From assembly GCA_965223325.1 (NCBI GenBank), contig CBDCWI010000002.1, forward strand, positions 4,352,001 to 4,416,000: DNA of 64,000 nt, written 5' to 3'. Position numbers and translations under genes: made by a program. The notes below the pieces were generated by a model. It was given only the letters and a program-made list of their open reading frames with translations, was not told the origin of the DNA and did not search any database. Source of the stretch: Candidatus Multivoradales bacterium (GTDB lineage: Bacteria > Acidobacteriota > Thermoanaerobaculia > Multivoradales > Multivoraceae). Of this stretch, positions 1,504 to 50,017 are shown piece by piece. The stretch's first letter is position 1. The number at the start of each line of letters is the position of its first letter.

Positions 1504-1739
1504 GAGTTCTCCTCCGGAGCAATGGATGGCTCCGTGGTCGATGGGCCGCGGCAGCGGCCTCCCTCGACACGATGAATCAATGGGACGTCGACCCATTGTA
1601 CGACCCATCCGCCCTGTGGCTAGCCCGGTGTTGAGTTCCATCGTGGTCAGGAATCCGCGGCGCGCGCCAAGCGAGCGAAGGTCGACGCCATTTCGTCAAC
1701 GCGACGTGGTTGGCAAGGGGCCGCGCTGCGGGACGCTTG

Positions 1740-3649
1740 GATACGCCGGGATAAACCGGCATGGAGAAAGGAATGAGAGAGTCCCACCCTCGAAGGGGTA
1801 GCGACCCAGAGGGTCCCCGAGTCATGCGCCGGCTCCCGCGAGGGTGCGGTGAAGCGTTGACAGGGGCACACACAGGCCGGGTATTGAGCCGCGAAATAAG
1901 AATTTGGGAGTGCCGACGCTGTCAAGCGAAGCGGAAGGCGAGACTCCGTAGCGCGCTATCGCGAGCTCTGCGGCGACTCCCCGCGGTCGTAGACCCTGTG
2001 CATGTGTGGAATCTCCATGCGCGAGAACCGGGAGATCCGCGATCTGGCCAGTTGGGTATCTGGTCCGCATCGGGAAGGCTAGAGGCCGTAAGCCGATGAC
2101 GCACGGATGGCGGAAGTCAGACAGGCCCGTAGTACCTGCGAAGTCGTCGAACAACGGTGGGAGACCAGCGGCGGAGGCGGTGGAGGGAAGGGGCCTGGCC
2201 AAGGGGAACACGGGCAAGCAAAACGCACCCCGGACACAGAGCCGGATGGAGAGTGCGAGCAATGCGCTGGGCCGTGTACGAGAAGCCGCCCGCAGGGGCA
2301 AGGAAGTGAAGTTCACAGCGCTTCTTCACCACATCACGGTCGAGCGACTCCGGAGCGCATTTGACGTGTTGCACCGAGACGCAGCGGCAGGAGTGGACGG
2401 AGTGTCATGGAGCGAGTACGCAGAATCTTTGCTGAGCAATCTCGAGGACCTGCACTCTCGTGTCCACCGTGGGAGCTACCGGGCGAGTGCGACTCGTCGC
2501 GTCTACATCGAGAAATCGGATGGGCGGTTCCGACCGCTTGGCATCGCCACGTTGGAGGACAAGATCCTTCAGCGCGCCGTCGTCTCGGTGTTGGATGCGA
2601 TCTACGAGGAAGACTTTCTCGGGTACTCATACGGATTCAGGCGAGGCCGCAGCCAGCACGATGCTTTGGATGCGCTATTCGTTGGAATCACAAAGCGGAA
2701 GGTGAACTGGGTGCTCGACGCAGACATTCGTGGGTTCTTCGATGCCCTGGACCACGAGTGGCTGGTGAAGTTTCTCGAGCACCGTATCGGAGACCGTAGG
2801 ATCCTTCGCCTCATCCAGAAATGGCTGAGGTCCGGAGTGATGGAAGACGGTAAGTGGCACGCGAGCACGCGGGGGACTCCTCAGGGGGCGACGATTTCGC
2901 CTCTCCTCGGGAACGTGTACCTGCACTACGTGCTCGATCTCTGGGTCCAGCAGTGGAGGAAACGCAACGCGCTTGGGGACATGATCTTCGTGCGCTACGC
3001 GGATGACTTCATCGTTGGATTTGAGAGGCAGGAGGAGGCAGAACGATTCCTCGAGGAACTGAACCTGCGACTCCGTGACTTCTCGTTGGAGATCCAACCC
3101 GAGAAGACGCGCCTGCTGGAGTTTGGCCGCTTTGCGGCCTACAACCGACGCGCGCGAGGTCTCGGGCGGCCGGAGACCTTCGAGTTTCTAGGCTTTACGC
3201 ACTGCTGTGCGCAGTCTAGTCGAGGGAGGTTCTTGCTGAAGCGCATCACGAGCCGCCACCGAATCCGCAGGACACTGAAGGCTGTCGGTACGGCCCTTCT
3301 GGGACACCGACACTCGCCGCTACCAGAGCAAGGTCTCTGGCTGGGATCCGTGGTGCGAGGCTTCAATGCCTACTACGGCGTACCCGGCAACTCAGCGGCG
3401 TTGAACGCCTTTCGACAGGAGGTCATTCGGCACTGGATGCGCGCTCTGCGCCGACGCAGTGACAAAGACCGCACGTCCTGGAAACGGATGTGGGCCCTGG
3501 TGGCCCACTACCTACCCAAAGCCCGAGTCCAACATCCCTGGCCTGATGAGCGACTTGTCGTCAATACCTGAGGCAGGAGCCCAGTGCATTAGCAGTGCAC
3601 GCTGGGATCTGTGCGGGGGGCGCCGGGCAACCGGCGCTCCTACCGCGAT
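1740..3649 (+). mobile_element. Group II intron, copy 1 (1910 bp, endonuclease-less RT, bacterial class D/E-like)
   Basis: Domain V GAGCCCAGTGC...GCACGCTGGGATC (AGC triad, AC bulge); domain VI with bulged A, ending ...CCTACCGCGAT; EBS1 CAAGCG (1923-1928) is complementary to the exon end CGCTTG (1734-1739); boundaries taken from copy 2. Confidence 0.93.
2096..3571 (+). CDS. ltrA: Group II intron reverse transcriptase/maturase
   Basis: RT motifs FTALLHHI, RPLGI, SYGFRRGRS, DADIRGFFD, GTPQGATISPLLGNVYL, YADD and FEFLGF; X domain present, no HNH domain. Confidence 0.95.
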   Translation: MTHGWRKSDRPVVPAKSSNNGGRPAAEAVEGRGLAKGNTGKQNAPRTQSRMESASNALGRVREAARRGKEVKFTALLHHITVERLRSAFDVLHRDAAAGVDGVSWSEYAESLLSNLEDLHSRVHRGSYRASATRRVYIEKSDGRFRPLGIATLEDKILQRAVVSVLDAIYEEDFLGYSYGFRRGRSQHDALDALFVGITKRKVNWVLDADIRGFFDALDHEWLVKFLEHRIGDRRILRLIQKWLRSGVMEDGKWHASTRGTPQGATISPLLGNVYLHYVLDLWVQQWRKRNALGDMIFVRYADDFIVGFERQEEAERFLEELNLRLRDFSLEIQPEKTRLLEFGRFAAYNRRARGLGRPETFEFLGFTHCCAQSSRGRFLLKRITSRHRIRRTLKAVGTALLGHRHSPLPEQGLWLGSVVRGFNAYYGVPGNSAALNAFRQEVIRHWMRALRRRSDKDRTSWKRMWALVAHYLPKARVQHPWPDERLVVNT

Positions 3650-3777
3650 CGCCGCAAGAGTGATGAGTAGCGGAGCCGTGGTAACGCCTTTTCGAGGTCG
3701 AAGAAGCGGCAACTCCGGGCCGTCAACGAGTCACCGAAGAGGCCCTTCTGGCAGAGGCCGCAAAACCACGGCCCCCG

Positions 3778-4566
3778 CTACAAGAAGCCGAAGATCGCGA
3801 CGAAGTGGATCGCTGCGCCGACGAGGCCGAAGACGTGCCAGACCGTGTGGCCGTAGGGCAGGTTGTGCCATAGATAGAAGGCTCCGCCAAGGGTGTAGGC
3901 CAGGCCGCCGGCGAGGAACAGGGTCCAGGCCATTGGGGGCAGGGCAGCGGTAGCAGTGGGATACACCAGAAAGATGCTCCAACCCAGAGCGGCGTACGAA
4001 CCAACACACCAGCGCCGGTGCCAGACGCTGCTGCAGTGGTGTTTCCGGGTCACCAGCTTGAGGACGATCCCGGTGGCGGCGGCACTCCACACGGCACCCA
4101 ACAGGGGGACACCCACCGAGTGGTCGAGCCCGAGCAGGCAGAAGGGGGTGTAGGTACCGGCGATGAAGAGGTAGATCGCACAGTGATCGACGACCTGAAA
4201 AAGGGCACGGCGGGCCGGCTGAAGCTCGGCATGAAAGAGGGTCGAGGCAAGAAAGAGAAGAACCAGTGTGGCGCAATACAAAGCGCTGGCCGCAAAGGGA
4301 AGCAGAGACGTTTCGTAGGCGAGCCGAGTGAGCACCAGGCCCGAGGCGCCAGCGGCGGCGACCAGCCCGGCGGCATGGGTGACGATCTCAGCGAGGTCCT
4401 CGGTCGGTCGCCGGCGCGGGCGTGCGCTGGCCTTCTTCTTGGGGGCCTCCACCCTGATGGTTCGAGCGTCGACGGCGAGGCCTGTCTCGCTGGCCCGCCG
4501 GACTCTCTGACCGCCGAGCGTGGTGCGTGCGGGGATTGGTAGCAGGGTAACTTCGGTGGTGGACAT
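3778..4566 (-). CDS. Hemolysin III / PAQR family membrane protein
   Basis: Motifs STLFH, DHCAIYLFIAGTYTP, GGLAYTLG and HTVWHVF; about 7 TM segments. Confidence 0.92.
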   Translation of the reverse strand: MSTTEVTLLPIPARTTLGGQRVRRASETGLAVDARTIRVEAPKKKASARPRRRPTEDLAEIVTHAAGLVAAAGASGLVLTRLAYETSLLPFAASALYCATLVLLFLASTLFHAELQPARRALFQVVDHCAIYLFIAGTYTPFCLLGLDHSVGVPLLGAVWSAAATGIVLKLVTRKHHCSSVWHRRWCVGSYAALGWSIFLVYPTATAALPPMAWTLFLAGGLAYTLGGAFYLWHNLPYGHTVWHVFGLVGAAIHFVAIFGFL

Positions 4567-14315: not shown

Positions 14316-14984
14316 ATGCGAGGAATCGAGCAGATCCCATGGTGCTACGACACTTTGATGGGAATCTCCGAGCGCACCGGTCTCGGACGTTGGCGCCGCT
14401 GGCTCACCTCCGGCAGCCAGGGACAAGTCCTCGAAGTCGGCAGCGGCACCGGCCGCAACCTGCCGCTCTACCCCGGCGACGCCAAAGTCATCGGCCTCGA
14501 GCCCGCCTTCGCATCACTCCTCGCAGCCCGCAAGAAGTCCCCCGATACCCGCCTCGTCCTCGGCAGCGCCGAAGACCTGCCCTTCAGACCGAACAGCTTC
14601 GACACCGTCGTCTCCGGCCTGGTCTTCTGCAGCGTCCCCGACCCCATGCGCGGCCTCTCCGAAGTCGCCCGAGTCCTCCGCCCAAGCGGCACCCTGCGCA
14701 TGTTGGAGCACGTCCGCGCCAAGAGCCACTGGGGAGGAAGATTCCAGGACCTCATTCTGCCCCCCTGGAAATTCGTCACCGGCGGCTGTCACCTCAACCG
14801 TGACACCGAAGCCAACGTAAGAAACGCCGGCTTCCAGATCCAGCCCGACCGGAAAGAAGACGGCTCCCTACGCTGCTTCAGCGCAGTTCCGCCGCGCGAG
14901 GTGAGTCGCGATCGAGTCCAAGCCGAGGGCCGTATGACCCCGTTGACGCCGCCTCGGGGCAACGGCCTGCAGCTCGGGTTGTAG
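14316..14984 (+). CDS. Class I SAM-dependent methyltransferase (its 3' end lies inside repeat unit A)
   Basis: Motifs VLEVGSGTG, AEDLPF..SFDTVV and EVARVLRPSG. Confidence 0.9.
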   Translation: MRGIEQIPWCYDTLMGISERTGLGRWRRWLTSGSQGQVLEVGSGTGRNLPLYPGDAKVIGLEPAFASLLAARKKSPDTRLVLGSAEDLPFRPNSFDTVVSGLVFCSVPDPMRGLSEVARVLRPSGTLRMLEHVRAKSHWGGRFQDLILPPWKFVTGGCHLNRDTEANVRNAGFQIQPDRKEDGSLRCFSAVPPREVSRDRVQAEGRMTPLTPPRGNGLQLGL

Positions 14985-15652
14985 CCGTAGAATCCGAGTA
15001 GGCGCGCGCCCAGCGACTCGCAGTCGTTCGCCGCGTGTACAGGGCGGCCTCCCGGCGCCGTCGGCCCGCGCTTCGGACCGCTTGCGCCGTCCCCCTTGAG
15101 GGGGTACCAGGGGGTGAGGTGACATTGATTGGGGTCGTGGTAACGACGGATCGCGCTCGCGAGATCGCCTCTCTCTACCAACAGCCTCACCCAAGCCGAG
15201 CGCGATACGAGGGCCGTATGACCCCGTTGACGCCGCCTCGGGGCAACGGCCTGCAGCTCGGGTTGTAGCCGTAGAATCCGAGTAGGCGCGCGCCCAGCGA
15301 CTCGCAGTCGTTCGCCGCGTGTACAGGGCGGCCTCCCGGCGCCGTCGGCCCGCGCTTCGGACCGCTTGCGCCGTCCCCCTTGAGGGGGTACCAGGGGGTG
15401 AGGTGACATTGATTGGGGTCGTGGTAACGACGGATCGCGCTCGCGAGATCGCCTCTCTCTACCAACAGCCTCACCCAAGCCGAGCGCGATACGAGGGCCG
15501 TATGACCACGTTGACGTCGCGTTTCGGGAACTGTGAACCCATCAAGTCATAGCCGTAGAATCCGAGTAGGCGCGCGCCCAGCGACTCGCAGTCGTTCGCC
15601 GCGTGTACAGGGCGGCCTCCCGGCGCCGTCGGCCCGCGCTTCGGACCGCTTG

Positions 15653-17562
15653 GATACGCCGGGATAAACCGGCATGGAGAAAGGAATGAGAGAGTCCCAC
15701 CCTCGAAGGGGTAGCGACCCAGAGGGTCCCCGAGTCATGCGCCGGCTCCCGCGAGGGTGCGGTGAAGCGTTGACAGGGGCACACACAGGCCGGGTATTGA
15801 GCCGCGAAATAAGAATTTGGGAGTGCCGACGCTGTCAAGCGAAGCGGAAGGCGAGACTCCGTAGCGCGCTATCGCGAGCTCTGCGGCGACTCCCCGCGGT
15901 CGTAGACCCTGTGCATGTGTGGAATCTCCATGCGCGAGAACCGGGAGATCCGCGATCTGGCCAGTTGGGTATCTGGTCCGCATCGGGAAGGCTAGAGGCC
16001 GTAAGCCGATGACGCACGGATGGCGGAAGTCAGACAGGCCCGTAGTACCTGCGAAGTCGTCGAACAACGGTGGGAGACCAGCGGCGGAGGCGGTGGAGGG
16101 AAGGGGCCTGGCCAAGGGGAACACGGGCAAGCAAAACGCACCCCGGACACAGAGCCGGATGGAGAGTGCGAGCAATGCGCTGGGCCGTGTACGAGAAGCC
16201 GCCCGCAGGGGCAAGGAAGTGAAGTTCACAGCGCTTCTTCACCACATCACGGTCGAGCGACTCCGGAGCGCATTTGACGTGTTGCACCGAGACGCAGCGG
16301 CAGGAGTGGACGGAGTGTCATGGAGCGAGTACGCAGAATCTTTGCTGAGCAATCTCGAGGACCTGCACTCTCGTGTCCACCGTGGGAGCTACCGGGCGAG
16401 TGCGACTCGTCGCGTCTACATCGAGAAATCGGATGGGCGGTTCCGACCGCTTGGCATCGCCACGTTGGAGGACAAGATCCTTCAGCGCGCCGTCGTCTCG
16501 GTGTTGGATGCGATCTACGAGGAAGACTTTCTCGGGTACTCATACGGATTCAGGCGAGGCCGCAGCCAGCACGATGCTTTGGATGCGCTATTCGTTGGAA
16601 TCACAAAGCGGAAGGTGAACTGGGTGCTCGACGCAGACATTCGTGGGTTCTTCGATGCCCTGGACCACGAGTGGCTGGTGAAGTTTCTCGAGCACCGTAT
16701 CGGAGACCGTAGGATCCTTCGCCTCATCCAGAAATGGCTGAGGTCCGGAGTGATGGAAGACGGTAAGTGGCACGCGAGCACGCGGGGGACTCCTCAGGGG
16801 GCGACGATTTCGCCTCTCCTCGGGAACGTGTACCTGCACTACGTGCTCGATCTCTGGGTCCAGCAGTGGAGGAAACGCAACGCGCTTGGGGACATGATCT
16901 TCGTGCGCTACGCGGATGACTTCATCGTTGGATTTGAGAGGCAGGAGGAGGCAGAACGATTCCTCGAGGAACTGAACCTGCGACTCCGTGACTTCTCGTT
17001 GGAGATCCAACCCGAGAAGACGCGCCTGCTGGAGTTTGGCCGCTTTGCGGCCTACAACCGACGCGCGCGAGGTCTCGGGCGGCCGGAGACCTTCGAGTTT
17101 CTAGGCTTTACGCACTGCTGTGCGCAGTCTAGTCGAGGGAGGTTCTTGCTGAAGCGCATCACGAGCCGCCACCGAATCCGCAGGACACTGAAGGCTGTCG
17201 GTACGGCCCTTCTGGGACACCGACACTCGCCGCTACCAGAGCAAGGTCTCTGGCTGGGATCCGTGGTGCGAGGCTTCAATGCCTACTACGGCGTACCCGG
17301 CAACTCAGCGGCGTTGAACGCCTTTCGACAGGAGGTCATTCGGCACTGGATGCGCGCTCTGCGCCGACGCAGTGACAAAGACCGCACGTCCTGGAAACGG
17401 ATGTGGGCCCTGGTGGCCCACTACCTACCCAAAGCCCGAGTCCAACATCCCTGGCCTGATGAGCGACTTGTCGTCAATACCTGAGGCAGGAGCCCAGTGC
17501 ATTAGCAGTGCACGCTGGGATCTGTGCGGGGGGCGCCGGGCAACCGGCGCTCCTACCGCGAT
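15653..17562 (+). mobile_element. Group II intron, copy 2 (apparently identical to copy 1)
   Basis: Constant 13913-bp offset and identical ORF translations; the empty site CGGACCGCTTG|CGCCGTCCCCC in units A and B defines both ends. Confidence 0.95.
16009..17484 (+). CDS. ltrA: Group II intron reverse transcriptase/maturase
   Basis: Same protein as 2096-3571 (YADD). Confidence 0.95.
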   Translation: MTHGWRKSDRPVVPAKSSNNGGRPAAEAVEGRGLAKGNTGKQNAPRTQSRMESASNALGRVREAARRGKEVKFTALLHHITVERLRSAFDVLHRDAAAGVDGVSWSEYAESLLSNLEDLHSRVHRGSYRASATRRVYIEKSDGRFRPLGIATLEDKILQRAVVSVLDAIYEEDFLGYSYGFRRGRSQHDALDALFVGITKRKVNWVLDADIRGFFDALDHEWLVKFLEHRIGDRRILRLIQKWLRSGVMEDGKWHASTRGTPQGATISPLLGNVYLHYVLDLWVQQWRKRNALGDMIFVRYADDFIVGFERQEEAERFLEELNLRLRDFSLEIQPEKTRLLEFGRFAAYNRRARGLGRPETFEFLGFTHCCAQSSRGRFLLKRITSRHRIRRTLKAVGTALLGHRHSPLPEQGLWLGSVVRGFNAYYGVPGNSAALNAFRQEVIRHWMRALRRRSDKDRTSWKRMWALVAHYLPKARVQHPWPDERLVVNT

Positions 17563-17801
17563 CGCCGTCCCCCTTGAGGGGGTACCAGGGGGTGAGGTGA
17601 CATTGATTGGGGTCGTGGTAACGACGGATCGCGCTCGCGAGATCGCCTCTCTCTACCAACAGCCTCACCTTGAGGGGGTACCAGGGGGTGAGGTGACATT
17701 GATTGGGGTCGTGGTAACGACGGATCGCGCTCGCGAGATCGCCTCTCTCTACCAACAGAGGGCCGAGTAGGCGCGCGCCCAGCGTATGACCACGACCCCA
17801 A

Positions 17802-18845
17802 TCAATACCTGAAAGGCCAAAGCCGAAAATAATCCTTCACATTCCGCCACAACTTCGCCAACCCCTCCGGCTCTAGAATCAAGAACAACACAATCACCAA
17901 CCCAAAGACTCCCTGCTGTACGAACGGCAACTTCGCAGCGAGAAGTGGCGCCGTGTCTTGCATCGCCCGGCCCATGGTCGAAATGAACGCCGGCAGAAGC
18001 ACAATCAGAGTGGCCCCGAAGAAGCTGCCGTTGATCGTGCCGAGGCCGCCGATGATGATCATCGCCAGGTAGAGAATGCTGGTCTCGATCGTGAACCGCT
18101 CCCAGGTGACGATCGTTCGGTAGTGCGCCAACATCGCACCCGCCAGCCCGACGACGAAACTCGAGGTCGCGAAGGCCAGGAGCTTGTAACCAAAGACGTT
18201 GACGCCGATGGCAGAGGCCGCGATGTCTTGATCGCGAATCGCAACGAACGCCCGGCCGACGCGCGACCGGAAGAGATTGGCAGTGGCCAAGGCGACCAGG
18301 CAAGCGACACCGACCGCGATCCAATAGAACTCGAAGTCACCGTTCACCCGCATGCCGGCCAGTTCTGGTGCCGGCACGACCAGCGCTTCGGTGCCGCCGG
18401 TAAGCGCTGTCCAGTGGGTGATCACCCACTCGACGATCTGTTGAGCGGCCAGGGTTGCGATGGCCAGGTAGAGGCCCTTCAGGCGCAGGCTCGGCAGGCC
18501 GAAGAAGAGCCCTATGAGAGCAGTCAGGAGGGCCGCTGCCGGAATGCTGAGGAAGAAGGGCCAGTCGAAGCGGGCGGTGAGGATTCCAGAACTGTAGGCA
18601 CCGATGGCGAGAAAGGCACCCTGCCCGAGGCTGATCTGACCGGTATAGCCAACCAGGATGTTGAGGCCCAGCGCACCGATGGTCGCTAGAGCGATCTGGT
18701 TGGCGAGGGTGAGCCAGTAGTTGCTGGCGACGAACGGAAAGGCAACCAGAAACACTCCGAACAGGGCCAGGCGCACCTTCTCGAGCGGCAAGCGGCGCAG
18801 CGACATGTCGCGGCGATAGGTTTCGAAGAACGTTCCAGATTGCAT
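17802..18845 (-). CDS. Branched-chain amino acid type ABC permease, LivM-like
   Basis: Motifs GLNILVGYTGQISLGQ, LRLKGLYLAIATL and IIIGGLGT. Confidence 0.93.
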   Translation of the reverse strand: MQSGTFFETYRRDMSLRRLPLEKVRLALFGVFLVAFPFVASNYWLTLANQIALATIGALGLNILVGYTGQISLGQGAFLAIGAYSSGILTARFDWPFFLSIPAAALLTALIGLFFGLPSLRLKGLYLAIATLAAQQIVEWVITHWTALTGGTEALVVPAPELAGMRVNGDFEFYWIAVGVACLVALATANLFRSRVGRAFVAIRDQDIAASAIGVNVFGYKLLAFATSSFVVGLAGAMLAHYRTIVTWERFTIETSILYLAMIIIGGLGTINGSFFGATLIVLLPAFISTMGRAMQDTAPLLAAKLPFVQQGVFGLVIVLFLILEPEGLAKLWRNVKDYFRLWPFRY

Positions 18846-35551: not shown

Positions 35552-35717
35552 CTAGTACCCCGTACCATTGAACCGCACAGCGTCTGCGCGGTCCTCGCGC
35601 TCGATCTCTGTGTTGTCACTCCTCGACAGATCACCAATATGCCTGCGTCGTGACGCCTTGATCTCGAGCACGATCATCCGCTCAGCCACTATCCGTTTCA
35701 ATGGTACGGGGTACTAG
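35552..35717. mobile_element. MITE (166 bp including the flanking CTAG)
   Basis: Perfect 21-bp terminal inverted repeats CTAGTACCCCGTACCATTGAA / TTCAATGGTACGGGGTACTAG; no ORF. Confidence 0.8.
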
Positions 35718-36613
35718 AAACTCCAGGTGCCGTAGAGCTCGGTGACCGCGCCTTCGATTTCATGCCCCACGGTGTGCTGCAGGGCAATGCGGCTCACCCC
35801 GTCGTCCCACTGCAGGCGCAGATTGGTGGCACCGCTGTCGAAAGACTGGCGGGTCGAGAAGCTCATCTGTGACAACAGGCGTGACGGCGTGCCGGCGATG
35901 CGGAACTTGATGCCGACGTAGGTGTCATGGCCGAGGCTGGCGCGGGGAGAGACACGCAGGCGGGGGTGTTCGAGGTTGCGGTAGCGCGCGTTGCGTTTCT
36001 CGCGATGCTCCTCTTCGAGACGCGAGAAACCCACCCGGTGCTCGACCCAGTTGCGCACCAGCTTGCCGAGGTTGCTGCGGAAGGTGCTCGAGACTCGGTC
36101 GTAGCGATCGGTGCGGCCGTAGAGTTCGGAATTCCAGCCGTAGGTCGGGTCGAGCTCCATCAGGTCGAGGTCGAAGCGTGCGCGTTCGAGATCGCGCCAG
36201 CGGCTCTCGCCGAGGACCGAGCGGTAGTAGTCACGCTGGCGGTTTGCGGCGATCAAGTCGTCGATGGGAGGGGCGTAGAGGTCTGCCCTGGTGCCGCGGC
36301 CCCGCTGGATGCCGGGCAGACTCGAGGCTGCGCTGGGGAACATGCCGTTGCCGAGAAGCAGGCGATCGCGCACGCGCTGGTGGGTCTGAACCGCCTGAGT
36401 CTCTGTTTCCTGGGACCCTGTTTCTTGGGACTCTGTTTCTTGGGACGCGGACACCGCGTCGGCTGCGGGCTGAGCCTTCTCGGACTGAGCGCTCACCGGT
36501 CTGGTCGGGATCAGCAGTAGGGCCAGGAGCCCCAGCGCCAGGGCGGCCAAGCCACGACGGGCAAGAACCCGGGATGGGGCAGCGGAGGCTGGGTGTTTTG
36601 CTGGGGCGTTCAT
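35714..36613 (-). CDS. Exported hypothetical protein, possibly outer-membrane
   Basis: Signal peptide, SQET(E/G) x3, beta-strand-like C-terminus ending YGTWSF. Confidence 0.7.
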   Translation of the reverse strand: MNAPAKHPASAAPSRVLARRGLAALALGLLALLLIPTRPVSAQSEKAQPAADAVSASQETESQETGSQETETQAVQTHQRVRDRLLLGNGMFPSAASSLPGIQRGRGTRADLYAPPIDDLIAANRQRDYYRSVLGESRWRDLERARFDLDLMELDPTYGWNSELYGRTDRYDRVSSTFRSNLGKLVRNWVEHRVGFSRLEEEHREKRNARYRNLEHPRLRVSPRASLGHDTYVGIKFRIAGTPSRLLSQMSFSTRQSFDSGATNLRLQWDDGVSRIALQHTVGHEIEGAVTELYGTWSF

Positions 36614-42359: not shown

Positions 42360-43628
42360 GTGGAGCCCACTCTCAACGTCTACGGATGGGTCGTGCTGGT
42401 ATCCCTCTTGGGTTTCTGGGCACTCGGCCTGGTGATGCGGTGGCTCGATCGCCGCAACTTCGCACGCCAGCGTCCGCCGGGTCTCGAACGTGTCTATGAC
42501 GAGGAGCAGTACGCGCGTGCCCGTTCCTACACCGGCGTTCGGTCTCGCTTTGGCGCGCTGGTGGCGACCTTCGACCTCATCGTGCTCTTGGCCTTCTGGG
42601 GCCTCGGAGGTTTCGGTTGGTTGGACGAAACCGTGCGTTCGCTTGCCGACCGCTGGTTCGGGGGCCACCCCATCGCCATCGGCCTGGGGTTCGTGGGAGC
42701 GCTCGGCGTTGGGCAGGCACTGCTCGCGTTGCCGTTTCAGGTCTGGTCGACCTTCGTCATCGAGGAGCGCTTCGGCTTCAACCGAACGACCCTACGCACC
42801 TTCGTTGTTGACCTCATCAAGGGTGCTCTTGTCGGTGTCGTGCTCGGCACGCCGCTCCTCGCGGCTGTACTCGCTTTCTTCCACTACGGAGGCCCGCAGG
42901 CCTGGCTCTGGGCCTGGCTCTTCGTGACCGTTTTCGTGGTGGCGGTTCAGTACGTCGTCCCGACCTGGATCATGCCGCTGTTTAACAAGTTCGAGCCTCT
43001 CGAAGATGGCGAGCTCCGTGAGCGTCTTACCGAGTACGCCGAGGAGGTCGAGTTCCCGTTGCAGGAGGTCTTTGTCATTGATGGCTCGCGGCGATCGAAC
43101 AAGGCCAACGCGTTCTTTACCGGTTTTGGCAAGCGCAAGCGCATCGCTCTTTTCGACACCCTCGTCGAAAGCCACACAGTGCCCGAGCTGCTCGCGGTGT
43201 TGGCTCACGAGGTTGGTCACTACAAGAAGAAGCATCTCGTGATCGGCATGGCGCTTTCGATTGTGCAGACGGGCTTCATGTTGTGGCTCTTCGGCACCGC
43301 CATCCGCCAGGAGGGTCTCTTTCGTGCCTTCGGCGTCGGCCAGCCTTCCGTGTGGGCAGGCATGGTGTTCTTCGGCCTCTTGATGGCACCCCTCGGCCTG
43401 GTCCTCGGCCCCCTGGCCAGCTACATCTCGCGTCGCCACGAATTCCAGGCCGATCGCTGGGCCGTCGAAACCACCGGCCACGCCAAAGAACTCGTCTCAG
43501 CCCTCCTCAAACTCTCCACCGACAACCTCGCCCACCCAACCCCCCACCCCCTCCGCGTCGCGATGGAGTACTCGCACCCGCCGTTGTTGGTGCGGATAGG
43601 AGCGATCGAGGAGTTGGAGCCGTCGTAG
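42360..43628 (+). CDS. M48 family (Ste24-like) membrane metallopeptidase
   Basis: Motifs FVIEERFGFN, NAFFTGFG, HEVGH, EFQAD and YSHPP. Confidence 0.95.
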   Translation: MEPTLNVYGWVVLVSLLGFWALGLVMRWLDRRNFARQRPPGLERVYDEEQYARARSYTGVRSRFGALVATFDLIVLLAFWGLGGFGWLDETVRSLADRWFGGHPIAIGLGFVGALGVGQALLALPFQVWSTFVIEERFGFNRTTLRTFVVDLIKGALVGVVLGTPLLAAVLAFFHYGGPQAWLWAWLFVTVFVVAVQYVVPTWIMPLFNKFEPLEDGELRERLTEYAEEVEFPLQEVFVIDGSRRSNKANAFFTGFGKRKRIALFDTLVESHTVPELLAVLAHEVGHYKKKHLVIGMALSIVQTGFMLWLFGTAIRQEGLFRAFGVGQPSVWAGMVFFGLLMAPLGLVLGPLASYISRRHEFQADRWAVETTGHAKELVSALLKLSTDNLAHPTPHPLRVAMEYSHPPLLVRIGAIEELEPS

Positions 43629-43987
43629 CGCTCTGCTTCGTCAACGGACTCTCGGGTGCGAGTACGAAGGCGCCGTAGGCGCCTATCAGGAGAGTTCGGC
43701 GGCGAGAGGACGTGCTACATGCACGTCCGTAGCCGCCTCGCACCCGCCGTTGTTGGTGCGGTTGCGGGCGATCGAGGAGCTGGGGTCGTCGTAGCTCTTG
43801 GCTTCGTGAACGGACTCTCGGGTGCGAGTACGAAGGCGCCGTAGGCGCCTATCAGGAGAGTTCGGCGGCGAGAGGACGTGCTACATGCACGTCCGTAGCC
43901 GCCTCGCACCCGCCGTTGTTGGTGCGGTTGCGGGCGATCGAGGAGTTGGAGCCGTCGTAGCTCTTGGCTTCGTCAACGGACTCTCGG
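43571..43987. repeat. 166-bp tandem array (2.5 units at 43571, 43737, 43903) containing the M48 gene 3' end
   Basis: Direct comparison; hairpins TAGGCGCCTA and GGACGTGC-TACAT-GCACGTCC. Confidence 0.93.
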
Positions 43988-43995
43988 ATCCCATG

Positions 43996-44430
43996 CTAGG
44001 CGCGCACTGAACGTTTGACATACACGATCTCCGGGTCGCCCGGGTCAAGATTGTGAATGATCCCTGATCGTTCGTAGCCCAGTTTCTCCAGGACGTGCTG
44101 CATGTGCGCGTTGGACTGGTTGGTCGATGTGAAGAAGTCGTTGGATCGAGACCGACCTTCGAGGAACGCAATCAAGGCTGGACCGTATCCCTGTGAGCGC
44201 TGAGATTCCGCCACATAGATCAGTTCGAGGAACGATCGACCAAAGAACTCGTGGGAGATGATTCCGTACCCGACAACGCGGAAGGAAACCTCGAGGATCC
44301 ACATTCGGTGCCCGTCGATGGCATCTCTTATGAAATCCCTTCGGCCAGCTTCGATGCGTGCGATGTGGTCGACGTCGAGCAAGGCCAGCAAGTCCTTGCC
44401 AACCGCTTGCCGAATGACAGGGCCTGACAT
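43996..44430 (-). CDS. GNAT acetyltransferase (gene cassette 5)
   Basis: Motifs YVAESQRSQGYG and STNQSN..MQ..LEKLGY. Confidence 0.9.
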   Translation of the reverse strand: MSGPVIRQAVGKDLLALLDVDHIARIEAGRRDFIRDAIDGHRMWILEVSFRVVGYGIISHEFFGRSFLELIYVAESQRSQGYGPALIAFLEGRSRSNDFFTSTNQSNAHMQHVLEKLGYERSGIIHNLDPGDPEIVYVKRSVRA

Positions 44431-49010: not shown

Positions 49011-49461
49011 CTGAGTCAGTCTCGTGTCCGCCTAACGGACGAAGGTGAGCTGCGGGAACCCCGAGCGAGCAAAGCGAGCGCGGGTTCACGTCAGCTCGAC
49101 CTTTTCGTTGGGCTGCGCCCGTCTCGCTCCCAGAAGCGCCACCATGGTGGCGCGCAGGACGCCACTCTCGACCGAGTTCGGAGAGTCGCGGATGGTCTGG
49201 GAAGTGGGTCATGACGACCTGCGCCCATCGATCGAATTCATCCCGACGCATTCGGTACATCGGATGTGGCTGCTGGAAGAACGAGGGCGGAGACTTCTGC
49301 AGAACCCTAAAGCCCGGACCGTTCTTTCCGCATGCTGGGCAAGAGTAGGCCCGGACATCGTAAGGCTCGAACACACCGTCGATTCCGCGATAGTCGTGGT
49401 CAATCTCCCAGTGGGACGCACCGCAAGTACACTCTAGCTCGACGAGCAACGCAGGAGTCAT
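49003..49461 (-). CDS. Hypothetical Zn-ribbon-like protein (cassette 2); the ORF reads through the attC
   Basis: GAGGAGG RBS; CxC...CPAC. Confidence 0.65.
   Translation of the reverse strand: MTPALLVELECTCGASHWEIDHDYRGIDGVFEPYDVRAYSCPACGKNGPGFRVLQKSPPSFFQQPHPMYRMRRDEFDRWAQVVMTHFPDHPRLSELGREWRPARHHGGASGSETGAAQRKGRADVNPRSLCSLGVPAAHLRPLGGHETDSDE
49030..49113 (-). other. attC site
   Basis: GCCCAAC...AGGT(C)GAGCTG(A)CGTGAACCC...GGGTTCCCGCAGCTCACCT...GTTAGGC. Confidence 0.92.
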
Positions 49462-49479: not shown

Positions 49480-49562
49480 GCCCAACGGACGAGGGTGAGC
49501 TGCGTGAACCCGAGCGAGCGAAGCGAGCGCGGGTTCACGTCTGCTCGACCCAGTTGTTGGGG
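49480..49562 (-). other. attC site
   Basis: CCCCAAC...GGGT(C)GAGCAG(A)CGTGAACCC...GGGTTCACGCAGCTCACCC...GTTGGGC; near-identical to the attC at 49030. Confidence 0.92.
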
Positions 49563-50017
49563 GGCGTACCTCGGACCGCTGGCATCTCCGAGACCGCAGC
49601 GTGACTAAGATCGCCGTCTAGCACGGCCTCGATCTTCTCAACGAAGGCTACGAGATAGGTGACTTCGACGGGTTCGGTGATTCGCATCCCGCGAGTCTCG
49701 AAGCGAGCGTTCAACGATTCGGGTGGGATGCTGTCACCTAATGAGTGTAGCCAGGACACGTAGCCCGTGAGGAACTCGCGGAAGCAGTTGCGCTCCGTGT
49801 CGCTGAGAAGGTGACCGCTGAGGTCGATATCGCTACACCCGTTGCCATGGGCGACACGATGCTCCTGCCAGTACGACGACCACTCTACGAGCCATCGCTC
49901 CTGAGCGAACTTGGCGTCTTGGGCCAAGAACTCCGGAGCTAGATGCATGAACAGGATCTGCTCCCAGTCGTGTGCGTGAGCCCAGCACTTGCCGTAGTCG
50001 ATCGACGACCAGCTCAC
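49535..50017 (-). CDS. Hypothetical protein (cassette 1)
   Basis: GTG start with GAGG RBS; stop codon inside the attC. Confidence 0.65.
   Translation of the reverse strand: MSWSSIDYGKCWAHAHDWEQILFMHLAPEFLAQDAKFAQERWLVEWSSYWQEHRVAHGNGCSDIDLSGHLLSDTERNCFREFLTGYVSWLHSLGDSIPPESLNARFETRGMRITEPVEVTYLVAFVEKIEAVLDGDLSHAAVSEMPAVRGTPPNNWVEQT

Follow-up and report, generated by a model that had tools for sequence, protein, structure and literature searches.

A group II intron without an endonuclease domain and its probable natural target, a structured intergenic repeat of a Multivoradales bacterium

Homing into elements that are themselves present in many copies is a known strategy of group II introns. 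As described in the relevant sections of the published account, the class D introns RmInt1 and RmInt2 of Sinorhizobium meliloti, which lack an endonuclease domain, home into the insertion sequence (IS) ISRm2011-2 and into the inverted repeats of ISRm17, with about 10 near-identical copies per genome, occasional ectopic sites of similar intron-binding sites (IBS), and a target that reaches about 20 nt into the 5' exon (PMC5894124). Class C (IIC) introns insert after intrinsic terminators or into attC sites, according to the passages available from two papers (PMC12584367; PMC3522654). Excerpts of a further source report that repetitive extragenic palindromes (REPs) are the targets of ISPpu9, ISPpu10, ISPa11, and IS1397, and that a group II intron of Pseudomonas putida KT2440 is REP-associated in two of its nine copies (PMC1525189), while the IIB1 introns Avi.groEL and EcKTE56.groEL are listed, in the part of the text that treats them, among those lying in stop or start codons (PMC12584367). 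Here, a 64,000-nt stretch of a Candidatus Multivoradales bacterium (genome G000, contig C2, positions 4352001-4416000; hereafter the window, numbered from its first letter), taken from a two-contig assembly of 6.69 Mb, is described with regard to a group II intron that occupies one unit of a tandem repeat array. The novelty lies in the host, which is a structured repeat and not an IS; a narrow literature search found no description of a group II intron with a non-IS intergenic repeat array as its main homing site. The host repeat is also the more puzzling part of the system.

The intron has very probably undergone a recent burst of retrohoming. Its natural site would be a single, constant position within an intergenic repeat, about 250 nt long and structured, that is restricted to the species. 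A BLAST search of the whole genome recovers 14 full-length copies, 12 of them identical and two with one difference (99.95%), together with a 239-nt 3' fragment at 97% identity and a 36-nt match. In 13 of the 14 full copies the flanks align as one conserved element, interrupted at the identical nucleotide and always in the same orientation relative to the repeat unit, and the 3' flank of the fragment is this same element. The junction CGCTTG|C is common to all 14 copies; CGGACCGCTTG precedes the intron in 10 of the 13 family copies, in which the 3' exon starts with CGCCG (nine copies), CGCGG (two), CGCCT (one), or CACCG (one). Two of the 13 occupied units are solo. The suggestion of the initial annotation that the target is an amplifiable, hairpin-rich repeat is thus borne out across the genome, by the 13 copies and the fragment in a single family.

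Since the copies are near-identical, the burst must be recent, and the 97% fragment points to an earlier wave. Moreover, units from different loci are at most 78% alike, and the identical introns have therefore entered diverged targets separately. Passive multiplication of the intron through duplication of units already filled, in the absence of site-specific homing, is extremely improbable. The units do amplify in tandem, the median of the mean similarities within arrays being 0.98 (28 arrays); however, none of the arrays holds two introns, and the 13 occupied units lie at 13 loci with widely differing flanks although the introns are at least 99.9% identical, which contradicts this explanation.

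The arrangement can be read directly from the window array, in which an interrupted unit stands beside two uninterrupted ones. Tandem Repeats Finder reports an array of period 284 at 14924-15652 (2.6 copies, 95% matches, score 1328) and another of period 96 at 17572-17758 (1.9 copies, 100% matches), the latter being a 96-bp partial duplication. A repeat search delimits the units as 14913-15196, 15197-15480 (98%), and 15481-15764 (61%), the last value being low because the intron begins within that unit. In units A and B the site GGACCGCTTG|CGCCGTCCCCC is intact at 15084|15085 and 15368|15369, in an unbroken reading GGACCGCTTGCGCCGTCCCCC, whereas in unit C the filled site runs from GGACCGCTTG through GATACG...CGCGAT to CGCCGTCCCCC. 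As units A and B carry the same site empty, the bounds of the insert are exactly 15653-17562 (1910 nt); the comparison of filled with empty units allows a single register and reveals no target duplication. The features of this locus, including the two strands of a long-range helix, P1, that is treated below, are as follows.

14924..15652, plus strand: the 284-bp array as far as the intron, with complete units A and B and the 5' portion of unit C (Tandem Repeats Finder); one locus of a genome-wide family
14989-15147, 15273-15431, and 15530-15652 (C2:4366989-4367147, 4367273-4367431, and 4367530-4367652): matches of the family profile in the array (nhmmer)
15001..15008, plus strand: helix P1 of unit A, 5' strand (GGCGCGCG), with counterparts at offsets of +284 (unit B) and +568 (unit C)
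15079..15088, plus strand: 3' strand of helix P1 in unit A (CGC-TT-GCGCC), containing the empty homing site 15084|15085; in unit B the site is 15368|15369
15653..17562, plus strand: group II intron of 1910 nt, GATACG...CGCGAT (empty-site comparison; RF02005, 180.6 bits)
17563..17788, plus strand: 3' part of unit C after the intron, including the 96-bp duplication 17572-17758 and the last loop segment (Tandem Repeats Finder, repeat search)

The coordinates that had been given for the three units and their sites are correct. The proposal that the 284-bp array is the target holds as far as homing into an array unit is concerned; the array itself is not special, being one of 60 loci with 172 units. 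The other intron copy of the window lies in such a locus, a solo unit, which explains the match of 21 of 24 nt that had been noted between the two sites.

1740..3649, plus strand: second intron copy, 100% identical (BLAST; RF02005 at 1778-1996), with flanks GGGACGCTTG| and |CGCCGCAAGAG
1631..1739, plus strand: 5' half of the solo family unit, upstream of this copy (nhmmer C2:4353631-4353739, profile positions 5-114)
3650..3781, plus strand: 3' half of the solo unit with its terminal hairpin, P2, whose 3' arm 3765-3781 ends in CTA at 3778-3780, the TAG stop of a converging open reading frame (ORF)

From unit to stop, the distance at this solo locus is 2039 nt including the intron, which puts the stop at window position 3778.

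An artefact of assembly, affecting the 284-bp array or its copy number, is very unlikely. It would agree with the observation that no listed short-read contig bridges the array, the contigs ending at each repeat border. Nevertheless, depth is raised for pieces that are present four times (run X1) and twice (run X4) in the assembly, with values for array pieces and single-copy flank of 38.4 vs. 7.25 in X1 and 25.4 vs. 10.7 in X4, that is, 2.4 to 5.3 times; 28 comparable arrays occur in an assembly of two contigs, and a segment of about 45 nt differs between units A and B on the one hand and unit C on the other. In the short-read contigs of two runs the intron itself has about 9-10 times the depth of single-copy flank. 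These depths fit the assembly, without proving the order of the units. Runs X5 and X6 contain the intron with the flanks of other copies from the same genome and do not, therefore, represent independent organisms.

The insert of 1910 nt represents a mobile group II intron that lacks an endonuclease domain. Its ribozyme part amounts to about 584 nt, and the Rfam model RF02005 (group II D1-D4) matches 15691-15909, and likewise 1778-1996 in the second copy, over its full length (1-225) with 180.6 bits against a gathering score of 49. The intron is predicted to be self-splicing. The internal parts of the intron are the following.

15836..15841, plus strand: exon-binding site 1 (EBS1, CAAGCG), placed by the Rfam alignment within the loop of a domain 1 hairpin, complementary to the exon end CGCTTG
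16159..17484, plus strand: intron ORF, located in domain 4, for a reverse transcriptase (RT)/maturase of 441 aa, with PF00078 as its sole Pfam match (E 6.2e-39) and no endonuclease domain found
17490..17562, plus strand: 3' end of the intron, with a domain 5-like hairpin, a domain 6-like hairpin, and the terminal CGCGAT (by eye)

The domain 5-like hairpin (17490-17522, 33 nt) carries AGC at positions 2-4 and a 2-nt bulge, as judged by eye, and the 3' 95 nt of the intron are conserved in relatives. The intron starts with GAUACG and its relatives with GUGCG or GUACG. Among the PDB sequence matches of the RT, the best six of ten are group II intron RTs, one of them deposited as 'Retron-type reverse transcriptase', and the other four are other RTs; the IIC enzymes score best, at 145-136 bits, closely followed by LtrA at 134 and the 562-aa maturase/RT 6me0 at 128. 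The portions of two published descriptions that were available (PMC3552965; PMC3522654) do not place the clade of this intron.

RmInt1 and RmInt2 resemble this intron in having a protein with no endonuclease domain, a natural target within a multicopy element, near-identical copies, and ectopic sites. The host is different, being a structured, non-coding unit some 250 nt long, arranged in tandem arrays behind stop codons, and not an IS with a transposase gene; nor is a lagging-strand bias seen here. The best-matching many-copy rhizobial plasmid entry, which we take to be RmInt1-like although it is not so named, has an RT that is only 41% identical.

Recognition of the target seems to involve more than the short pairing with EBS1. 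The initial annotation was right that EBS1 (CAAGCG, 15836-15841) pairs exactly with CGCTTG. EBS1 lies in a hairpin loop, and in 10 types of relatives (the L011 group counting as one) the corresponding loop varies in concert with exon positions -6 to -1. Empty CGCTTGC motifs number 1797 in the genome, 119 of them within the family, and the empty 12-mer CGGACCGCTTGC occurs 83 times, 79 of them within the family. If the 7-mer alone were decisive, the family should have received about one of the 14 insertions, vs. 13 seen (binomial P about 2e-14, by our own arithmetic). Because the bare 7-nt motif is so common in the genome, targeting must use more than IBS1 and IBS3, and these statistics suggest that further parts of the unit are recognised, the simplest candidates being positions -11 to -7. 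In the alignment, the intron enters the 3' strand of P1 between columns 145 and 146; at position +4, which belongs to a covarying P1 pair, both C and G are tolerated. A second exon-binding site (EBS2) acting through a GUCC:GGAC pairing was considered and rejected, since this pairing, found in some relatives too, lies in a conserved single-stranded stretch.

Class C introns share with this system a multicopy structural intergenic target, the lack of an endonuclease domain (here 441 aa with PF00078 only), and a short EBS1-IBS1 pairing, as far as the consulted sections of the two papers describe them (PMC12584367; PMC3522654). They differ in that the site here lies inside a helix strand and that no consistent hairpin precedes it in the 14 flanks. 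Moreover, the domain 5 of IIC introns carries CGC, whereas the domain 5-like hairpin here has AGC. When the 62 nt preceding each of the 14 copies were folded as DNA, no shared hairpin emerged, and recognition in the class C manner, with the site just after a terminator-like or attC stem-loop, was accordingly rejected, the site being within the 3' strand of P1.

The repeat family that supplies this site is large and diverged. A profile of 13 rebuilt sites gives 172 matches in 60 loci (E up to 1e-3), mostly tandem arrays of 2-7 units of about 250 nt, up to seven in number, with periods of 128-325 bp and, in two spacings, 360 bp; between loci, the similarity of the last units does not exceed 78% (37 units compared). 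Each unit contains the long-range helix P1, in which GCGGCGCGCG pairs with CGC-TT-GCGCCGC, the family consensus of the 5' strand being CCGCGGCGCGCG. In 36 sequences 97.5% of 360 cells are paired, and changes on both sides are seen in four of the ten pairs, one of them in 11 sequences; none of 500 shuffles reached as high a value, and slid partners were only 22-54% paired. No consistent helices were found inside the domain that P1 closes. For the window array and four other loci, Rfam 15 contains no family that matches the repeat, the only rows being at chance level (E 3.9 and E 0.24).

In two short-unit arrays, C2:700738-701370 and C2:4134164-4135145, each unit stops at about GGAC(C/T)G(CTT), where the leader of the following unit directly adjoins, so that the break is 0-4 nt from the intron site. 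Other short-unit arrays break at profile positions 79-81. The former break points hint that intron activity itself may remodel arrays.

The second structural feature of the unit is the hairpin P2, of the form [C/G]TAG-N7-CGTGGT ... loop ... ACCACG-N7'-CTA[G/C], with a stem of 17-22 bp and a loop of about 80 nt. The family-wide analysis covered 54-55 distinct stems; in 54 stems of 17 positions each, 874 of 918 cells (95%) are Watson-Crick pairs, with all four pair types at positions 6-12. The arms mostly start with CTAG or GTAG, and the adjoining stem differs at every locus. In a strict hairpin scan, 38 of 43 hairpins fell in family loci and most of the other five adjoined family DNA; the loop measured 73-82 nt in 39 of the 43. 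The window array contains several 5' arms and a single closing arm.

17602-17619, 17698-17715, 15124-15141 (unit A), and 15408-15425 (unit B), plus strand: 5' arms of P2 (ATTGATTGGGGTCGTGGT) (sequence)
17789..17806, plus strand: the sole terminal 3' arm of P2 (ACCACGACCCCAATCAAT), a perfect 18-bp complement of the 5' arms, recovered by a later hairpin scan

It had been proposed that the array shows a REP hallmark, or that of a bacterial interspersed mosaic element (BIME), consisting of GTAG followed by the palindrome GGCGCGCGCC. This does not hold: GTAGGCGCGCGCC, present at about 14998-15010, is the 5' strand of the long-range helix P1 and not a free-standing palindrome, and the GTAG at about 14998 is not conserved across the family. 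The REP-like feature of the unit is instead P2, with its [C/G]TAG base. Like arrays of REP doublets forming hairpins (REPINs) or of BIMEs, and like small terminator-like repeats, the family is intergenic, hairpin-forming, clustered behind genes, and lineage-specific. Unlike them, it is built of far longer units (about 250 nt), which are repeated whole, head to tail, and contain two long-range helices that vary freely by compensatory changes; its overlap with stop codons is exact. With REP-targeting elements the intron shares the use, by a mobile element, of a dispersed palindromic repeat as landing pad. It differs from them, and from the KT2440 intron, in that 13 of 14 copies have landed at one exact nucleotide and that a retroelement recognises the site through RNA pairing.

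P2 stands in a fixed relation to neighbouring genes. The next downstream gene lies on the opposite strand in 52 of the 60 loci. A converging ORF is found 40-130 nt beyond the core in 39 loci, and in 36 of these its stop is 79-93 nt away, that is, inside the outer end of the 3' arm of P2. TAG makes up 33 of the 39 converging stops vs. 40.6% of 4172 ORFs genome-wide. In the window array the stop of an ABC-permease ORF (17802..18845, minus strand), at 17802-17804 (TCA, which is TGA on the minus strand), falls inside the arm 17789-17806. The IIB1 introns mentioned above are similar in that an intron system is tied to host stop codons; however, they sit within the stop codon in sense orientation, whereas here it is the repeat that overlaps the stop, with the intron about 150 nt away and on the opposite strand. 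As a trait of the genome, TAG accounts for 40.6% of stops among 4172 ORFs of at least 150 aa, at 64% G+C, and there may be a connection between this share and the repeats that lie over stop codons.

Hairpins at stop codons extend beyond the family. Relatives carry tight hairpins over the same permease stop codon, and the window stem resembles that of G007 (locus L245). The core CGTGGT/ACCACG is common to the stem at the permease locus of the window and to L218, the permease locus of the closest relative. L218 has, at 1640-2000, a stop-codon hairpin TGA-GCGAGCC-CGTGGT-GGCT-ACCACG-GGCTCGC-TCA, followed by a tandem repeat of about 190 nt, each of whose two units has a small hairpin; compensatory changes distinguish the two stems. 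At a second locus of the family, beside ruvB, the orthologous gene in G001, a genome of the same genus, ends in the same TAG but has no hairpin there. In the window itself, positions 35552-35717 are taken up by a second kind of long inverted repeat, CTAG...CTAG, in which arms of 40 nt enclose a loop of 86 nt, and its outer CTA (35714-35716) is the TAG stop of an ORF at 35714..36613 on the minus strand. Since this is a second hairpin that abuts a stop, such elements belong to more than one family here.

Taken together, these features allow a mechanism to be proposed. The EBS1 loop CAAGCG of the intron RNA pairs with CGCTTG, and insertion takes place before a C at CGGACCGCTTG|CGCCGC, the 3' strand of P1. 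In addition, the intron would read either positions further upstream, from about -11 to -7, or some other part of the unit. The unit consists of a domain closed by P1, followed by the P2 hairpin that overlaps the stop of the converging gene. As no endonuclease domain was found, priming of the complementary DNA would presumably come from replication intermediates, by analogy with RmInt1. The units multiply locally into arrays of up to seven near-identical copies, and each amplification therefore creates new empty homing sites in non-coding DNA. The 'self-renewing safe haven' of the initial annotation is a reasonable, though hypothetical, evolutionary reading of this situation.

Several observations weigh against a site-specific homing system of this kind. 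One copy, C2:2349730-2351639, lies in unrelated sequence, GAGCGCTTG|CAGTT, and has little in common with the others beyond IBS1; the specificity of the intron is therefore not absolute. This copy may interrupt an ORF in sense orientation. It is the only one of the 14 that shows the pattern which had been named in advance as speaking against the repeat as target, that is, copies in unrelated sequence with only IBS1 in common. Some 79 good sites have so far received no intron, even where the unit is identical to an occupied one, and no array contains two introns. Two direct repeats of 1.9 kb lying about 250 bp apart would be expected to recombine, which may be why double occupancy is unseen. No partner was identified for EBS2 or for exon-binding site 3 (EBS3), no loop covarying with positions -7 to -12, and no match of the Rfam D5-D6 models was reported at gathering score or at E up to 1. 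There is likewise no replication-strand bias, with 9 vs. 6 introns and 28 vs. 32 loci being co-oriented vs. opposite on a replichore map based on GC skew alone; as a lagging-strand pathway like that of RmInt1 predicts such a bias, its absence weighs against this pathway. Finally, the gene context comes from a crude ORF caller of our own, based on G+C at third codon positions (GC3), which missed the methyltransferase ORF adjoining the window array. This caller places a co-oriented gene upstream in seven of the 13 occupied loci, to which the window array is added by eye as an eighth, and read-through from these upstream genes could express those eight copies.

With regard to the nature of the repeat, we lean slightly towards an element whose intron-sense strand is read as RNA. 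The preservation of two helices across 60 diverged loci, together with the exact overlap with stops, argues that the fold is either under selection or rebuilt by an as yet unnamed mechanism. One possible reading, held tentatively, is that the units are transcribed as structured RNAs on the intron strand, antisense to converging 3' ends, and that they offer the intron both landing sites and sense transcription. Both helices are kept through compensatory change, the length of the P2 loop is held (73-82 nt in 39 of 43), and the intron is always in the same orientation. In P2, G-T pairs outnumber A-C pairs by 21 to 8 on the intron strand (one-sided binomial 0.012, by our own arithmetic), and P1 has G-T pairs and no recurrent A-C pairs; however, this excess of G-T pairs is only slight, and the stems do not count as independent cases. 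Moreover, no promoter- or terminator-like site was found in the array, Rfam gave no match, the nearest transcription is opposite in 52 of 60 loci, and the family was not found in relatives, which would be odd for a functional RNA.

The other possibility, equally tentative, is that the repeat is selfish DNA moved by a transposase, either a REPIN-like hairpin served by an HUH enzyme of the REP-associated tyrosine transposase (RAYT) type or a miniature inverted-repeat transposable element (MITE) of the IS630/Tc1 type inserting into CTAG with TA duplication, in which case the intron would parasitise the relic of a DNA transposon. In most loci, the inverted repeat formed by P2 is bordered on either side by [C/G]TAG, another CTAG...CTAG inverted repeat sits on a TAG stop at window 35552-35717, and stop-overlapping hairpins occur behind the same permease gene in relatives. 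The genome also has 28 PF01797-like ORFs, and the best HUH-like protein among them, of 272 aa and encoded at L118:1390..2208, shows an HIH motif by eye. Nevertheless, the 7-8 nt beside CTAG are wholly different between loci and yet complementary, unlike the terminal repeats bound by transposases, no conserved 5' end of the unit was found, and the loci, at most 78% alike, are old relative to each other. Only one of the 28 HUH-like ORFs lies less than 1 kb from an array (593 bp), the next being at 5.0 kb and 6.8 kb and the rest at 16.5 kb or more; no link with a RAYT/HUH gene, for which the initial annotation had suggested looking, was found. No transposase could be linked to the repeat; HUH-like ORFs were checked by distance, and IS630-type genes were not searched for.

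Three described kinds of element fit poorly in this context. An IS630/Tc1-type MITE would account for the CTAG at both ends and does not agree with the unconserved 7-8 nt that adjoin it or with the missing conserved 5' unit end. A REP/RAYT system with its cognate flanking HUH gene is not what the distances between the 28 PF01797-like ORFs and the arrays reveal. An integron attC or cassette array does not agree with arrays spread over 60 dispersed loci, the nearest of them 11.5 kb from the integrase; no RYYYAAC/GTTRRRY pair was seen by eye, and no attC model was run. The integron integrase gene itself lies at C2:3807261-3808190 (TIGR02249, 422.7 bits vs. a cut-off of 265). That the repeat is an undescribed bacterial element with all of the following properties at once, namely, two helices in about 250 nt, anchoring at stop codons, an RNA on the intron strand, and tandem amplification, with the intron as a specialised parasite that takes landing sites and expression from it, is a rather unlikely combination.

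The repeat seems to be restricted to this species. A profile search (nhmmer) found it beside none of 77 related intron loci, and a motif scan in none of 30 genomes of the same family. A covariance model, R1, with a maximum of 79 first-pass candidates scored per genome, did not find it in 40 relatives, a result that is not equivalent to absence. A motif scan of one genome per species gave 58 single matches, of which the best reached 17.7 bits with R1, vs. at least 114 bits for true members, and these were taken as chance. In G001, of the same genus, a relative of the intron at L142:1250-2650 is truncated at the 5' end and internally deleted, with 76-85% identity in pieces; it ends in CCTACCGCGAT and lies outside any repeat of the family.

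Related introns of other phyla (L004-L010, L011-L013, L017, L018, L022, and L032) are also found in repeated contexts. Those at L004-L010 lie within short tandem repeats of the GGTGAAGC type, with another intron copy directly after in L005 and L006, and the L011 group has a common exon motif AAGGTG...ACGCTTA.

The system may be of use in several respects. It offers a natural example of a retroelement whose choice of target is tuned to a non-coding, self-amplifying repeat and not to a gene or an IS, with about 92 near-identical landing sites of which some one in eight is filled. It is suited to testing how an intron without an endonuclease reads its target beyond IBS1, and the position of the site within a helix strand makes the role of target folding testable as well. 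In addition, it could show how the amplification of a repeat and the spread of an intron feed each other, and, with dozens of harmless landing sites in one genome, such an intron could become a tool for multicopy integration.

Further observations concern the genome at large and other parts of the window. On the evidence of GC skew, C1 in reversed orientation would continue the end of C2, giving one chromosome of 6.69 Mb with its origin near C2:3.5 Mb. Clusters of HUH (PF01797-like) ORFs of 320-360 aa lie at the ends of both contigs, at C1:2126128-2143849 and C2:4455510-4486968. In the window, a 166-nt tandem repeat at 43571-44068, with three copies (100%, 93%, and 62%), is unrelated to the host family by the nhmmer profile, and a 58-nt direct repeat, 86% identical, occurs at 49060-49117 and 49509-49566, 449 bp apart.

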